Virus record (IMG/VR): IMGVR_UViG_3300020441_000006
Span: 1-55,136 of that record
Strand: one strand, 5' to 3'
DNA length: 55,136 bases
From: a virus
Lineage: Duplodnaviria > Caudoviricetes
Shown here: piece by piece, positions 12,646-17,121 of the stretch
Numbering within the stretch: position 1 is the stretch's first letter
How the letters are laid out: each line of letters opens with the position of its first letter
Notes under the pieces: generated by a model
What the model was told of the DNA's origin: nothing
Database searches by the model: none
What the model saw: the letters and a program-made list of their open reading frames with translations, nothing else
Program-made: the position numbers and the translations under genes

Positions 12646-13233
12646 ATGGCAAATAAAGATGCCCCTTTTGGTTTGCGTCCAATTAGAATGATCGGCGGCG
12701 GTGATTTTACAGGCGGCCAAGACAGATATAGTATAGCTAGTAGCTATAATACCAGTTTATACCAAGGAGATCTCGTAGAGCCTCTCACTAACGGTACAAT
12801 TGGTAGAAAAGCTGCTGGGGAAAACGATGCTGTTCTTGGAGTATTTAACGGCTGTAGATATACAAATCCAACCACCGGCACTCCGACTTGGGCCAATACC
12901 TATCAACAACCGATCGCAGCAAGTGACATTTACGCATTTGTAGTTTGTGATCCTAGTGTTGTTTATGAAGTACAAGCAGATGACACATTCCCAACAACTG
13001 ATTTATTCGGCAATTTTGATATTGTTGATAATTCACCAGTTGGAGATGTTAACTCTGGTATTTCACACGTAGAACTTGACGTCACGACAGGCAATACCAC
13101 TGCTACTCTTCCTTTGAAAGCCATTGGCATTTCTGAGGATCCAGATAACAGTGACACAGCGTCTGCTAACACCAACGTGGTCGTTACTATTAACAATTCA
13201 GTGTTTTCTGGTGGCACTGACGGTCTAGCATAG
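12646..13233 (+). CDS. Putative capsid decoration/cement protein
   Basis: MAN.DAPFGLRP start, beta-rich, directly upstream of major capsid gene. Confidence 0.65.
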   Translation: MANKDAPFGLRPIRMIGGGDFTGGQDRYSIASSYNTSLYQGDLVEPLTNGTIGRKAAGENDAVLGVFNGCRYTNPTTGTPTWANTYQQPIAASDIYAFVVCDPSVVYEVQADDTFPTTDLFGNFDIVDNSPVGDVNSGISHVELDVTTGNTTATLPLKAIGISEDPDNSDTASANTNVVVTINNSVFSGGTDGLA

Positions 13234-13242
13234 GAGGTTAAC

Positions 13243-14151
13243 ATGGCTATATCACGCGCACAACTCGCAAAAGAACTAGAACCTGGCCTCAACGCTTTAT
13301 TTGGACTTGAATATGCTAAATATGGCGACGAATCCCGAGAGATTTTTGAAACAGAATCTTCTGACAGAGCATTTGAAGAAGAAGTAATGCTCGTTGGATT
13401 TGGTAATGCTGCGGAAAAAGCAGAAGGTGCAGGCGTACAATACGACTCAGCTTCAGAAGCTTACACTTCTCGTTATACACATGAGACAATTGCTCTTGCA
13501 TTTGCTCTAACGGAAGAAGCTGTTGAAGATAACTTGTATGATCGTCTAGCAACTCGCTATACTAAAGCATTAGCTAGGTCAATGAATCACACTAAACAGG
13601 TTAAGGCAGCCAATGTTCTAAACAATGGTTTTAACAATAACTTCACTGGTGGTGACGGGGTTGAGCTTTTCTCAACTGCACACCCACTAGCATATGGAGG
13701 AACATTTGCTAACGAACCTACTACAGATGCCGATTTAAATGAAGCTTCTCTAGAAAATGCACTAATTGATATTAGTAATTTTGTAGACGAAAGAAATTTA
13801 ATCGTTGCTCTTAACGGAAGAAAACTTGTTGTTCCGTCACAACTAAGATTTGTTGCTGACAGAATACTTGAATCTACTCTTAGAGTAGGTACTGCTGATA
13901 ACGATATTAACGCTATCAGAAACACAAGTGCTGTTCCTGAAGGATATGTAGTAAATCACTTCTTAACTGATCCGGATGCATGGTTTGTATTAACCGATGC
14001 TCCTAATGGTCTGAAACACTTTGAAAGAAGCCCATTAAGAACAGCAATGGAAGGTGACTTCAACACAGGAAACATGAGATACAAAGCTAGAGAAAGATAC
14101 AGCTTTGGATGGTCTGATCCTAGAGGAATTTATGGTTCAAAAGGCGCTTAG
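13243..14151 (+). CDS. Major capsid protein (Mu gpT-like HK97 fold)
   Basis: MAISRAQLAKELEPGLNALFG, LFSTAHP, RYKARERYSFGWSDPRG; strong SD and downstream terminator. Confidence 0.92.
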   Translation: MAISRAQLAKELEPGLNALFGLEYAKYGDESREIFETESSDRAFEEEVMLVGFGNAAEKAEGAGVQYDSASEAYTSRYTHETIALAFALTEEAVEDNLYDRLATRYTKALARSMNHTKQVKAANVLNNGFNNNFTGGDGVELFSTAHPLAYGGTFANEPTTDADLNEASLENALIDISNFVDERNLIVALNGRKLVVPSQLRFVADRILESTLRVGTADNDINAIRNTSAVPEGYVVNHFLTDPDAWFVLTDAPNGLKHFERSPLRTAMEGDFNTGNMRYKARERYSFGWSDPRGIYGSKGA

Positions 14152-14170
14152 TCTTTTTTAAATTTCTGAG

Positions 14171-14201
14171 AAAAGGGTAGATTATGTCTACCCTTTTTTT
14201 T
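14171..14201 (+). terminator. Rho-independent terminator
   Basis: AGGGTAGA/TCTACCCT stem followed by T run. Confidence 0.9.
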
Positions 14202-14206
14202 GTCTA

Positions 14207-14235
14207 TTGCATTCTCCCCAAAATCTTTATATTAT
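14207..14235 (+). promoter_or_regulatory. Sigma70-like promoter
   Basis: TTGCAT-17 nt-TATTAT. Confidence 0.65.
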
Positions 14236-14241
14236 AAGGAA

Positions 14242-14287
14242 TCTTTGACGAACATGGTGTTCGACAGGCTACTCAACTGACAAGGAG
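14242..14287 (+). ncRNA. Candidate cis-regulatory 5' leader RNA (three-way junction, three GAC linkers)
   Basis: TCTTT-GAC-GAACA/TGTTC-GAC-AG..CT-GAC-AAGGA; closing stem pairs with SD. Confidence 0.5.
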
Positions 14288-14294
14288 AAAAACA

Positions 14295-14750
14295 ATGGGT
14301 ACAACAACTTTTAGTGGGCCAATTAAAGCAGGCCCAATCTCAAACACTACTGGAACAACAGTTGGCACTGATGTTGCTGATGTAGGCTATGTAACTATGA
14401 ACCAATCAGGAGTTCCTGATATTACTGGTGCAAGTAAACTTAATCAAAGAATGGCAGTTATACCTGCTAATTCACAGATTATTGATGTTATCTTAAATGT
14501 AACAACAGCTGGTGATGATACTGGAGCCGCTACTATTTCCGTAGGAACTGCAGCAGATGCAGATGCTTTTTTAAACGGCATAAACACTAAAGCAGTGGGA
14601 ACAACACATGGAACTTTAGATACTGAAGCTACTAATGTTGGAACAACTGATTTAGAAGTTCTTGCTGACTTTACTGGAGCAACTGGAGACGGAACAGCCG
14701 GTGTGGCGACTGTTACAGTTCTATATGCTCAGAACAATAATTTATCATAG
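14295..14750 (+). CDS. Putative head decoration/spike protein
   Basis: MGTTTFSGPIKAG start, IPANSQIIDV, G.A.VTV.Y; follows capsid gene. Confidence 0.65.
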   Translation: MGTTTFSGPIKAGPISNTTGTTVGTDVADVGYVTMNQSGVPDITGASKLNQRMAVIPANSQIIDVILNVTTAGDDTGAATISVGTAADADAFLNGINTKAVGTTHGTLDTEATNVGTTDLEVLADFTGATGDGTAGVATVTVLYAQNNNLS

Positions 14751-14759
14751 GAGGCTTAA

Positions 14760-15086
14760 ATGGCTGGACCAGTTAGTGTCGCAAATTTAGGAGCTAATGC
14801 TACTGAAACTATCATTAATCCACAGTCTGCAAACCCTGCTGTAAATTATGCAAGTACAATTGCATATTTTAAAGGGATTGATTTTTCTGCGGGCGCTGGA
14901 GGAGAAGGTACAGTTAATATTCAAACACAAGTAAATGGATCTTGGGCAACACAGACAACATATTCTGTTAGCGCTAATAATAATGATTCTGTTTATATTC
15001 CAGGTGACATGGGAGTTCGTTTAAAAGACGGACTGCGAGTTACTACGGATGCGAATATTGACAACGCTCAAATATACTACACGTAA
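14760..15086 (+). CDS. Putative virion structural protein
   Basis: Beta-rich, IP..GV....G..V pattern; SD ggagg. Confidence 0.65.
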   Translation: MAGPVSVANLGANATETIINPQSANPAVNYASTIAYFKGIDFSAGAGGEGTVNIQTQVNGSWATQTTYSVSANNNDSVYIPGDMGVRLKDGLRVTTDANIDNAQIYYT

Positions 15087-15098
15087 TAGGAAATTAAG

Positions 15099-15335
15099 AT
15101 GGAAATGGACTTACTATGGAATGTTGGTTTAACCATCTTAATTGCCCCCGGTACTTACGCCATTGCCAACTTATTCGTGAGGATGAATAAAGTGCAAGAA
15201 GATTTAAATGAATTAAGAGTTAAGACTGCTGAAGATTATGTGTCTAAGAAATCACATGCTGATAGTCTTGATCAATTACTAAGACGCTTTGATAGATTAG
15301 AAAATAAAATAGATAGGATGATTGAAAATGGCTAG
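15099..15335 (+). CDS. Small membrane-anchored coiled-coil protein
   Basis: N-terminal hydrophobic, EDYVSK..RFDRLENKID. Confidence 0.75.
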   Translation: MEMDLLWNVGLTILIAPGTYAIANLFVRMNKVQEDLNELRVKTAEDYVSKKSHADSLDQLLRRFDRLENKIDRMIENG

Positions 15336-15465
15336 TGGTCGTTCTCAATTTGGCACTTTAACTAGAAGATCTTTTTATAGTAAAGGCGGACCAGTAAGAA
15401 TAAAAAAAAATAAAGGATGTGGTAAAATCATGTCTAATAGAAGAAAGGCAACAAGGTATAGTTAA
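15328..15465 (+). CDS. Small basic protein (45 aa)
   Basis: Not in ORF track; overlaps both neighbours; YSKGGPV, KGCGKIM..RRK.T. Confidence 0.7.
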   Translation: MASGRSQFGTLTRRSFYSKGGPVRIKKNKGCGKIMSNRRKATRYS

Positions 15466-16145
15466 TGACATTAAGTAATTCTAAAAATTTTGAATTAAAT
15501 GTAACTGACTACATTGAGGAAGCTTATGAAAGATGTGGTTTAGAGTTACGAACAGGTTATGATTTAGAAACAGCTAAAAGATCTATGAATTTACTTTTGG
15601 CTGATTGGGCTAACCGAGGTCTTAATCAATGGACCATTCAACAAACTATTACTACTGTAACTGAAGGGGTAAATTATATTTCTCCCGGATCAGATACAAT
15701 TGATGTATTGGATGCTGTTTTAAGACGAAATGAAAATGGAACTGACACAGATATGTCTTTAGGAATGGTAAGCCGTGCCGAATTTTTAAATATTCCTGAT
15801 AAATCTAATAAAGCTAGACCGACTCAATATTTTGTAGATAAACAAATTGATCCTAAAATATATTTATGGCCTACTCCAGATAATAGTACAGATAAAATAG
15901 TTTATAATAGATTAGTAAGAATGGATGACGCTGATGCGGCAACTAATACTTTACAAATGCCTTTTAGGTTTTATCCATGTTTAGCAAGTGGGTTAGCTTA
16001 TATGCTTTCTGTTAAAAAAGCGCCTGAACGAACAGAATTATTAAAAGCTGCATATGAAGATGATATGCGAAGAGCTATTGATCAAGATGAACCTCGTTCA
16101 TCCTTTAGAGTAGCTCCAGACATGAGGAGCTTTATGATAAGATAA
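15465..16145 (+). CDS. Putative head-tail adaptor protein
   Basis: IEEAYERCG..GYDL.TA.RS.NL..WANRGLN.W, YLWPTPD; position. Confidence 0.65.
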   Translation: MTLSNSKNFELNVTDYIEEAYERCGLELRTGYDLETAKRSMNLLLADWANRGLNQWTIQQTITTVTEGVNYISPGSDTIDVLDAVLRRNENGTDTDMSLGMVSRAEFLNIPDKSNKARPTQYFVDKQIDPKIYLWPTPDNSTDKIVYNRLVRMDDADAATNTLQMPFRFYPCLASGLAYMLSVKKAPERTELLKAAYEDDMRRAIDQDEPRSSFRVAPDMRSFMIR

Positions 16146-16474
16146 TGAATTACGCTCTTGGAAAATTTGCAATTGCTATTTGTGACATTTGTGGTCAAAG
16201 ATATAAATTACATCAATTAAAAAAACAATGGAATGATTGGAAGGCATGTCCTGAATGTTATGATCCAAAACAACCACAATTAGAAATACCTACAAATACT
16301 GTAGATCCACAAGCATTATACGAGCCAAGACCTAGTATTGATGTAGAGGCTGGTGAAGGTGTGGTAAGAACAGAAAATCCTGGGTTTGTTAATTCAAAAG
16401 AAGATTTAATTGGTCATGCTTTTAGAACTAATTCTTTAAATGGACAATTAGGTAGTATAACGGTGGTAGTATAA
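16145..16474 (+). CDS. Zn-finger protein
   Basis: CDICG..CPEC, KQPQL, EPRP. Confidence 0.75.
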   Translation: MNYALGKFAIAICDICGQRYKLHQLKKQWNDWKACPECYDPKQPQLEIPTNTVDPQALYEPRPSIDVEAGEGVVRTENPGFVNSKEDLIGHAFRTNSLNGQLGSITVVV

Positions 16475-17121
16475 TGGCATACACATACACAACATTAAAA
16501 ACAGCTATACAAGATTTTGTAGAAGATTCAGGAACAACCTTTGTTGCTAACTTAGATAATTTTATACAAAATGCTGAACAAAGAATATTTAGCGAATCAG
16601 ATTTACCATTAGATAGAAAAAATTCTACGGGTAATACCACAGCTAATAATAAATATCTTTCTACTCCAGATGATTTTTTATCTACCTATAGTTTAAGTAT
16701 TGTTTCTAGTGGAACACATCATTTTCTTTTAAACAAAGATGTCAATTTTTTACAAACATTTGATCCCGATCCTGACACCACACGAGGAATGCCTAAATAT
16801 TATTCTTTATGGGATGAAAATACTTTTATACTTTCACCCACCCCGGATCAATCATATGAAGTAGAATTGCATTATTATTACAAGCCTGTTTCCATAACTA
16901 CATCTACAGATGGAACATCTTGGTTTGGTACTAATGCTCAAAACGCATTATTATATGGATCATTAGTTGAGGCTTACACCTTTTTAAAAGGTGAGCCGGA
17001 TTTAATAAAACTGTATAATGATCGTTATATGGAAGCGCTGTCTAGGGTAAAAAATCTTGGAGAGGGACGTAACCGTACAGATGAATACCGTTCAACAATA
17101 GTAAGACAAAAGGTGACTTAA
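16474..17121 (+). CDS. Putative head-tail adaptor/connector protein
   Basis: Y..L..AIQD..FI..AE.RI, PTPD..Y.VELHY, LLYGSL.EA. Confidence 0.65.
   Translation: MAYTYTTLKTAIQDFVEDSGTTFVANLDNFIQNAEQRIFSESDLPLDRKNSTGNTTANNKYLSTPDDFLSTYSLSIVSSGTHHFLLNKDVNFLQTFDPDPDTTRGMPKYYSLWDENTFILSPTPDQSYEVELHYYYKPVSITTSTDGTSWFGTNAQNALLYGSLVEAYTFLKGEPDLIKLYNDRYMEALSRVKNLGEGRNRTDEYRSTIVRQKVT

Follow-up and report, generated by a model that had tools for sequence, protein, structure and literature searches.

The interval downstream of the capsid gene

The window, by which we mean the whole stretch of DNA analysed here, is an IMG/VR virus record (IMGVR_UViG_3300020441_000006, Caudoviricetes) of 55,136 bp, estimated to be 94% complete, and our subject is a compact RNA element situated in it between the gene of the major capsid protein and the next gene, an open reading frame (ORF) for a putative capsid cement protein. 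The stop codon of the capsid gene (14149-14151) is followed on the same strand by a terminator-like hairpin with a T-run, by two promoter-like hexamers and by a leader in which three identical GAC triplets join three helices, here called Ha, Hb and Hc, ahead of the Shine-Dalgarno (SD) sequence and the ATG of the next gene (Table 1). The original prediction, made from the window sequence, had described the terminator, the hexamers, UCUUU, the three GACs, the hairpin, AG..CU, AAGGAG and the ATG, and all of them lie where it had placed them.

The minimum free energy (MFE) structure of 14242-14297 is exactly the three-way junction that had been drawn there, with six pairs in UCUUUG:CAAGGA, six in the first hairpin and three in the third arm (C-AG/CU-G), at -9.5 kcal/mol, and it leaves a single A between each pair of helices, three in all. 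Taken from the window sequence alone, such a GAC junction is not above chance: three GAC within 36 nt are found 17 times on the plus strand of the window, versus 21.5 +/- 5.3 times in simulated sequences.

Table 1. Positions of the leader element, its parts and the flanking features in the window
Feature	Position	Strand	Basis
Major capsid protein gene, Mu gpT-like / Phage_capsid_4	13243..14151	+	PF25209 58 bits; PF10124 27.5 bits (cut-off 20.1); PHROG 371
Intrinsic-terminator-like hairpin, 15 pairs, with T-run, 3' of the capsid gene	14168..14200	+	terminator scan
Promoter-like TTGCAT (14207-14212), 17-nt spacer, TATTAT (14230-14235)	14207..14235	+	weak -35
Whole RNA element	14239..14303	+	match of covariance model R1
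Helix Ha, 5' strand: UCUUU (14242-14246) and G of GAC1	14242..14247	+	MFE; family pairing
GAC1 / GAC2 / GAC3	start 14247 / 14263 / 14279	+	sequence
Unpaired junction A of GAC1	14248	+	MFE, subtype parse
Hairpin Hb: C of GAC1, GAACA, loop UGG, UGUUC, G of GAC2 (GAACA/UGUUC, 14250-14262)	14249..14263	+	MFE, covariation
Unpaired junction A of GAC2	14264	+	MFE, subtype parse
Arm Hc: C-G cap (GAC2/GAC3), weak AG/CU stem (14266-67 / 14277-78), 9-nt loop	14265..14279	+	MFE only; no family support as hairpin
Pseudoknot, 5' strand UACUCA in the Hc loop	14270..14275	+	pairing with 14296-14301; family covariation
Unpaired junction A of GAC3	14280	+	MFE, subtype parse
Helix Ha, 3' strand: C of GAC3 and AAGGA; SD AAGGAG, 14282-14287	14281..14287	+	sequence, MFE
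Start codon (ATG 14295) and codon 2; pseudoknot 3' strand UGGGUA, 14296-14301	14295..14301	+	pairing tests
151-aa acidic beta-sandwich protein, putative trimeric capsid cement protein	14295..14750	+	AF2, Foldseek, composition

GAC triplets, helices and a pseudoknot in homologous leaders

Homologous leaders were drawn from three samples of loci, two of them anchored on protein (the best 80 of 494 confirmed loci from 599 candidates in IMG/VR, and the best 80 of 433 confirmed loci from 590 candidates in metagenomes) and the third selected with an RNA pattern that contained neither the loop nor the start region (80 loci of at least 120 matches). Besides the alignments A2 to A5, of which A5 is model-based and comprises 75 distinct rows, window included, and A3 holds 12 rows of the type of leader L007, pairing was counted without alignment, because in some rows of A2 and A5 MAFFT puts the second GAC one column off, and in A3 it fails to place the upstream pseudoknot correctly (60% paired). 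For these counts, 153 loci with at least 95 nt upstream were available, 102 of which had exactly three GAC in -80..+2, giving 61 distinct leaders; anchoring on the GACs alone leaves no choice of register, and permutations served as controls.

The three GACs and the three helices that they join are kept in the leaders of about 240 related loci. Among 39 dereplicated leaders, GAC is the most over-represented trinucleotide (126 observed versus 67.0 expected, z 9.8), and 35 of the 39 carry at least three copies within their last 70 nt; at least three are also kept in all 11 leaders of homologues on contigs of metagenome-assembled genomes (nine at 40-49% protein identity and two at 72-76%); the identical linkers in pseudo-three-fold arrangement, which had been postulated from one sequence, have thus been conserved. 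Outside GAC1 and GAC3, the positions of Ha at offsets 0-5 pair in 87, 87, 89, 69, 77 and 72% of the 61 leaders, with four to six pair types at each position, as compared with permuted means of 42-53% and no permutation above 67%. As regards Hb, 85% of these leaders form its first pair inside GAC1 and GAC2 (42% permuted), and two-sided changes are seen in 6 of 7 pairs both on A2 and on A5. Covariation scores amounted to 0.247 versus 0.125 shuffled for A2, 0.276 versus 0.156 for A3, 0.291 versus 0.110 for A4 and 0.249 versus 0.095 for A5, where the whole structure is 91.8% paired as against 82.3%, and in each of the four alignments the observed score was reached by 0 of 500 shuffles. An alignment of homologous leaders with a covariation test, the check proposed at the outset, therefore bears out the closing stem and the first hairpin, with the GACs kept.

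The order Ha5'-GAC-Hb-GAC-Hc-GAC-Ha3' recurs in all parsed leaders, and the triplets themselves cap the helices, G(GAC1) with C(GAC3), C(GAC1) with G(GAC2) and C(GAC2) with G(GAC3), so that each helix receives one G-C pair and three single A are left over. A single sequence would have been insufficient to establish the pseudo-three-fold GAC junction; because homologous leaders were compared, the counts and covariation indicate that it is a genuine conserved RNA fold.

The third stem (AG/CU) fared differently: between GAC2 and GAC3 a hairpin is unsupported in the 61 leaders (34% paired versus 28% permuted), and the loop pairs with the start codon region instead. The segment between the two triplets finds its partner 3' of Ha, with a mean best stem of 4.86 and a stem of at least 5 in 42 of the 61, against 3.62 +/- 0.10 for shuffled loops and 3.92 +/- 0.09 (maximum 4.17) for permuted partners. 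For the subtype group of the window that partner is the start codon with codon 2 (ACCCA:UGGGU, AGCCA:UGGCU, UCCCA:UGGGA), and in the window itself UACUCA would pair with UGGGUA, a strand that takes in the UG of the AUG, all of codon 2 and the opening base of codon 3, in a duplex of -5.6 kcal/mol. The pattern-selected sample yielded 45 distinct combinations of loop and start, in which GCC goes with GCN (36) and CCC or ACC with GGN (9), none being discordant, and its best stem averaged 5.33 versus 4.57 +/- 0.15 permuted; on A5, moreover, the pseudoknot pair with codon 2 is GC in 55 rows, CG in 15 and other in 4. The third arm, as judged from these pairings, appears to be a loop pairing with the start codon region, i.e., a pseudoknot, and not a hairpin stem.

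Nine near-invariant junction nucleotides amid covarying helices, together with pseudoknots and an overlap with the SD or AUG, would also be in keeping with a riboswitch-like sensor, whose pocket of three A and three G-C pairs would bind a small molecule or ion and so stabilise the fold over the ribosome-binding site; the weak secondary structure would likewise suggest a need of stabilisation. The regulated gene, however, encodes a structural component of the virion and has no connection with metabolism, the leaders showed no conserved alternative (anti-sequestering) structure, no ligand offers itself as a candidate, and no Rfam riboswitch family was matched by the window or the tested loci, all of which makes such a sensor highly unlikely.

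Three further readings of the same letters may be mentioned here. The GACs as mimics of an anticodon loop or of codons found no support, given that the flanking bases vary and the triplets stand outside 7-nt loops. TTGACG at 14245 was ruled out as a DNA -35 box, as the flanking helices covary and the hairpin loops of relatives read UUCG or GAAA. A mini-ORF of 8 codons (14254-14280, plus strand) starts at an ATG in the Hb loop and ends with a TGA whose last two bases are supplied by the third GAC; this ORF is confined to the subtype of the window, relatives carrying UUCG or GAAA loops at that place.

Placement of the element and its possible roles

Across subtypes the element keeps its topology and changes its place. 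In L007-, L027- and L035-like loci it lies about 20 nt further upstream, Ha has 7-9 pairs (two-sided changes in 7 of 10 pairs on A3 and A4), the strand that pairs with the Hc loop ends at or in the SD, and a segment upstream of Ha serves as partner to the Hb loop (6.14 versus 4.87 +/- 0.19 permuted; 36 leaders), these subtypes with two pseudoknots spanning about 100 nt. Where Ha is built from the AUG itself, as in L036- and L039-like loci (e.g., CCAUG:CAUGG), Hc is a hairpin whose loop carries the SD. Every parsed subtype thus has its SD or AUG inside the fold or directly adjoining it, and each keeps a set spacing between GAC3 and ATG (10-14, 0-2 or 27-39 nt), with an intergenic length from capsid gene to ATG of anything between 44 and 320 nt. 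The full motif is present in 65 of the 80 pattern-selected loci, and an ORF of at least 60 aa starts 2-13 nt after GGAG in 61. All this argues for the element being the 5' leader of the next gene, not a 3' trailer of the capsid gene.

The Rfam entry of a related motif, RF03012, is typed as small RNA (sRNA) and named a 'downstream element', which would imply an RNA acting in trans or a 3' element of the capsid mRNA. It is true that the element follows a gpT-like capsid gene, a homologue of which is detectable upstream in 57 of the 80 pattern-selected loci. Nevertheless, in 75 of 103 distinct intergenic regions from homologous loci the element is separated from the capsid stop by a hairpin with T-run similar to that of the window (by a crude detector), the 3' part of the element consists of the SD and start codon that belong to the next gene and covaries with codon 2 of that gene, and no terminator was found 3' of the element, so that a role of this kind seems barely credible.

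As to the origin of the transcript, the two hexamers in the window would place an RNA start near 14240-14242. TTGCAT agrees with the -35 consensus at 3 of 6 positions, and a consensus promoter scan left the site unlisted; the hexamers and their 17-nt spacing are nonetheless identical in all three leaders of the window subtype (the window itself, L003 and L004), in which 7 of the 17 spacer positions vary. TTGCAT-17-TATTAT is accordingly a candidate promoter with modest comparative support. Window-identical pieces in contigs from RNA libraries (runs X15-X18, four study codes) cover the capsid gene to 14092 or 14147 and resume at 14254-14259, and 14148-14253 is bridged by none of the pieces listed; being contigs only, whose depth cannot rank genes, they give no evidence of a start or of termination. 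Marine RNA-library contigs of the same runs match the window exactly over long stretches, e.g., 1,148 nt with 0 differences within 13000-15600, and although carry-over of DNA is possible, the phage of the window, or a near-identical one, is recurrent in marine samples. In L007-type loci the situation differs: in the rows read (L007, L010, L022, L055 and L102, of 12 in A3) the upstream strand begins in or directly after the U-tract of the terminator, leaving no room for a promoter, and the fold there can consequently form on read-through RNA only.

These 5' boundaries bear on the idea that a compact, knotted element protects or defines the 5' end of the mRNA, as a stabiliser or a nuclease roadblock after read-through and processing, with effects on translation being secondary. 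A junction with one or two pseudoknots whose nucleotides are conserved and whose helices vary freely would suit it, as would the fold on read-through RNA in the L007-type rows read and the predicted transcript start of the window, which coincides with the first base of Ha; a high demand for a 1:1 partner of the capsid protein would, besides, favour a positive element. On the other hand, it leaves unexplained that most subtypes have their SD or AUG worked into a helix, and the likeness to exonuclease-resistant RNAs on which it would draw is a putative one. We regard 5' protection as unlikely.

The product of the downstream gene offers more clues. ORF 14295-14750 belongs to no Pfam family and has a marginal PHROG match only, and a profile of 31 homologues found no match in PDB by sequence. 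Its AlphaFold (AF2) model (mean predicted local distance difference test, pLDDT, 80.4) is a beta sandwich with 30 poorly ordered N-terminal residues, for which Foldseek returned capsid entries of Pam1 (7eel_H, E 1.9e-5), KHP30 (7dn2_1, 1.1e-4) and GP4 (8h89_J, 3.2e-4), and the 'trimeric cement protein' of KHP40 (7dou_4, 5.5e-4), with template modelling (TM) scores of 0.53-0.70 for the cement-type matches. The suggestion of a decoration gene thus holds at the level of the predicted fold, by which the product is a putative decoration or cement protein. According to the part of PMC9698820 that deals with such proteins, those of lambda, GP4, KHP30 and Pam1 are trimers on three-fold and quasi-three-fold axes, with 540 cement copies to 540 capsid copies in GP4; the label 'cement protein' in phage DSL-LC04 derives from annotation with nr, CD-search and HHpred, as far as the relevant part of PMC10611076 states. 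Of the proteins encoded behind the RNA in the pattern-selected loci, 6 of 9 sampled matched PHROG 36974 (function unknown), three of them over the N-terminus only.

The ORFs behind the RNA are more alike at their beginning than elsewhere. A start M-[AG]-x-[TS]-[TS]-F-x-G is shared by 60 of 61 ORFs in the pattern-selected loci and a basic residue at position 11 by 59, with the profile of the window protein matching only 11 of the 61, so that the RNA travels with an N-terminal arm on otherwise different small proteins. In the proteins of L165-L244 the common arm reads M-A-N-T-T-F-x-G-P-V-R-S..., and bodies and lengths vary (about 150-200 aa). With differing bodies behind a common arm, it looks as though the part of a capsid accessory protein that faces outward were exchanged as a module.

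It was on the supposed trimer that the original prediction had built its operator, with autoregulation matching the supply of the protein to capsid number. Spelled out further, the cement trimer would bind the pseudo-three-fold junction, one GAC per subunit and possibly via the N-terminal arms, and repress its own synthesis when no capsid is free, so that the RNA would be a three-fold sensor coupling cement synthesis to empty three-fold sites on the capsid. A formally three-fold symmetric junction whose GAC identity is kept while the helices vary speaks for such recognition, and so do the fold of the downstream protein, like that of trimeric cement proteins, and the arm that co-travels with the RNA. 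The protein, however, is very acidic (K+R 3-6, D+E 10-16 and isoelectric point, pI, 4.05-4.32 among the 31 homologues; 4.05 in the window), which argues against RNA binding, and it matches no known RNA-binding family; binding to the conserved capsid protein would account for the conserved arm just as well, and the RNA pseudoknot includes the first codons of that arm. We therefore hold this form of autoregulation to be quite unlikely. If true, it would be the first case of a phage decoration protein under translational feedback coupled to assembly, as well as a symmetric mode of RNA-protein recognition.

What we consider probable, from comparative sequence evidence, is that the element is a cis-acting leader through which the cement gene has its translation initiation controlled. 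The comparison of leaders shows that the fold is conserved and that it overlaps the ribosome-binding site, and from this we infer that the element controls translation. Lying between the capsid terminator and the next gene, it would act in cis on the initiation of that gene: Ha would pair UCUUUG with CAAGGA, thereby engaging the SD, Hb would be a plain hairpin, and the Hc loop would form the pseudoknot with UGGGUA. Tight occlusion of the SD and AUG probably requires tertiary folding or a bound effector, which we invoke because the secondary structure is weak and the letters of the junction are strictly kept.

Several observations weigh against this reading. The leader of the window is not unusually stable (fold z -0.84, with 40 of 200 shuffles at least as stable), and in a nested ensemble without tertiary contacts its SD is unpaired with a mean probability of 0.58. 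In some subtypes (e.g., L035) the fold leaves both SD and AUG free on its immediate 3' side, so that simple occlusion is no universal mechanism; the hiding of the SD that had been proposed applies to the fold of the window, and elsewhere it is the AUG that is hidden, or the fold ends 5' of a free SD. Since the cement proteins related by fold are as numerous as the capsid protein (1:1), there is no obvious reason to expect repression by a leader that follows a terminator. The G-C caps, being near-invariant, owe the evidence for their pairing to two variants, L029, in which AAC...GAU at GAC1/GAC3 gives an A-U pair, and L085, in which GAU at GAC2 gives a U-G pair, both fitting the caps; and shuffle controls overstate the independence of kindred sequences.

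Regarding the neighbourhood, the capsid gene is immediately preceded by ORF 12646-13233 (plus strand; 195 aa, acidic, pI 4.05, PHROG 37556 of unknown function), whose position is conserved in phages CRP-902 and DSL-LC04. Further downstream, paralogues of an SU10-type adaptor are encoded at 15465-16145 and 16474-17121 (plus strand), with a 109-aa ORF in between, and ORF 15322-15465 (plus strand; 47 aa, TTG start), the end of which meets the start of the first adaptor gene at 15465, is very basic (14 K+R, 0 D/E, pI 11.9). This ORF was set aside as a candidate RNA binder, being conserved (87-89%) only in L003 and L004, the nearest relatives, among the loci compared.

RF03012 and other known systems

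An Rfam search of the window, also proposed at the outset, gave a divided answer: the window itself went unmatched, and one neighbouring subtype proved to be RF03012 (Mu-gpT-DE; Rfam type 'Gene; sRNA'), so that the motif was already catalogued. The leader of CRP-902 matches RF03012 with 72.3 bits (gathering score 49), and neighbouring subtypes score 27.7-74.5 bits; for the window there is no match at the gathering threshold and none at E<=10 over 14100-14400, and the identical leaders L003, L004 and L083 have none at E<=1. Over 48 loci, 11 reach the gathering score, all of one subtype, 6 score 27.7-43.6 bits, and 31, the window subtype among them, lack a match at E<=1. What else Rfam matched nearby (sraA, DapZ and others) coincides with the terminator and scores far below thresholds. 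We therefore turned to a covariance model, R1, made from 24 leaders of neighbouring subtypes with the window subtype left out; six of the 24 (L001, L008, L016, L025, L063 and L071) scored above the RF03012 gathering score when tested. In the 55-kb window R1 has a sole good match, at 30.9 bits (E 1.4e-5), the next, at 14.9 bits, being a look-alike of SD plus start; the element of the window is thus a single-copy, divergent relative of the Rfam motif.

The resemblance extends to position and architecture. Like RF03012, the element lies 3' of a Mu gpT-like capsid gene, since the ORF directly upstream passes the cut-off of PF10124 (Mu-like_gpT). The RF03012 consensus comprises P1, P2, three GACs, the SD and a terminal AUG without a pseudoknot, and both have P1 closed by the G of GAC1 and the C of GAC3 with the SD in its 3' strand, a GAC-flanked hairpin P2, an A/C-rich linker, then GAC with SD, and AUG. 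The window differs in its SD (AAGGAG), in UCUUU instead of CCU in Ha, and in a longer linker with a possible 3-bp stem, and whereas the model has no pseudoknot and ends at the AUG, the wider family reaches two pseudoknots and about 100 nt. These comparisons show RF03012 to cover only a narrow subtype within a leader RNA family that is far larger and varied in structure, and the element of the window to be a divergent variant of a catalogued, functionally orphan motif whose family is wider than the Rfam entry.

RF03012 reportedly came from a comparative-genomics study of 224 motifs (PMC5737381), whose main text lacks the term 'gpT' and any mention of the motif. A literature search for the names Mu-gpT-DE and RF03012 found only the CaCoFold paper (PMC7657543) and its preprint; in the part of the paper concerned, the Rfam and ZWD versions of the motif are said to differ and CaCoFold to give more supported, covarying pairs, and its supplement makes no mention of the motif.

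The Rfam model misses most of the family, and an orphan motif typed as sRNA proves to be a narrow subtype in a family of leader RNAs carried by abundant marine phages that are related to pelagiphage HTVC023P and to roseophages CRP-901/902. The family is distinguished by a junction of a rare kind, formally three-fold symmetric, and by one or two pseudoknots; the fold is joined to the ribosome-binding site of a putative capsid cement gene, and the motif thereby gains a testable function, namely, control of a capsid accessory protein made from RNA behind the terminator of the capsid gene. A cultivable test system is offered by CRP-901/902 on Roseobacter FZCC0083, as described in part of PMC10149686. 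A compact RNA with a conserved core of three GACs also invites structural work.

Among known systems, the larger subtypes may be compared with the exonuclease-resistant RNAs of flaviviruses, which consist of a three-way junction with two pseudoknots. Both have a junction into which a 5' segment pairs and a loop that pairs downstream; unlike those RNAs, with which it shares neither sequence similarity nor an Rfam match, the element is bacterial and overlaps a ribosome-binding site. In logic it would be like P22 scaffolding protein and T4 gp32, which limit their own synthesis post-transcriptionally and whose supply is matched to an assembly sink, although the RNA features differ; for a phage decoration protein, the literature search found no paper on autoregulated translational repression. 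Leaders of ribosomal protein genes, such as the pseudoknot of S15 (rpsO) and operators with three-way junctions, are autoregulated. The element differs from S15-type leaders in its unrelated core sequence and in the acidic product of its gene, yet both would place a pseudoknot or three-way junction over the SD and AUG of the regulated gene, and both would control initiation for a protein whose main partner is a larger assembly.

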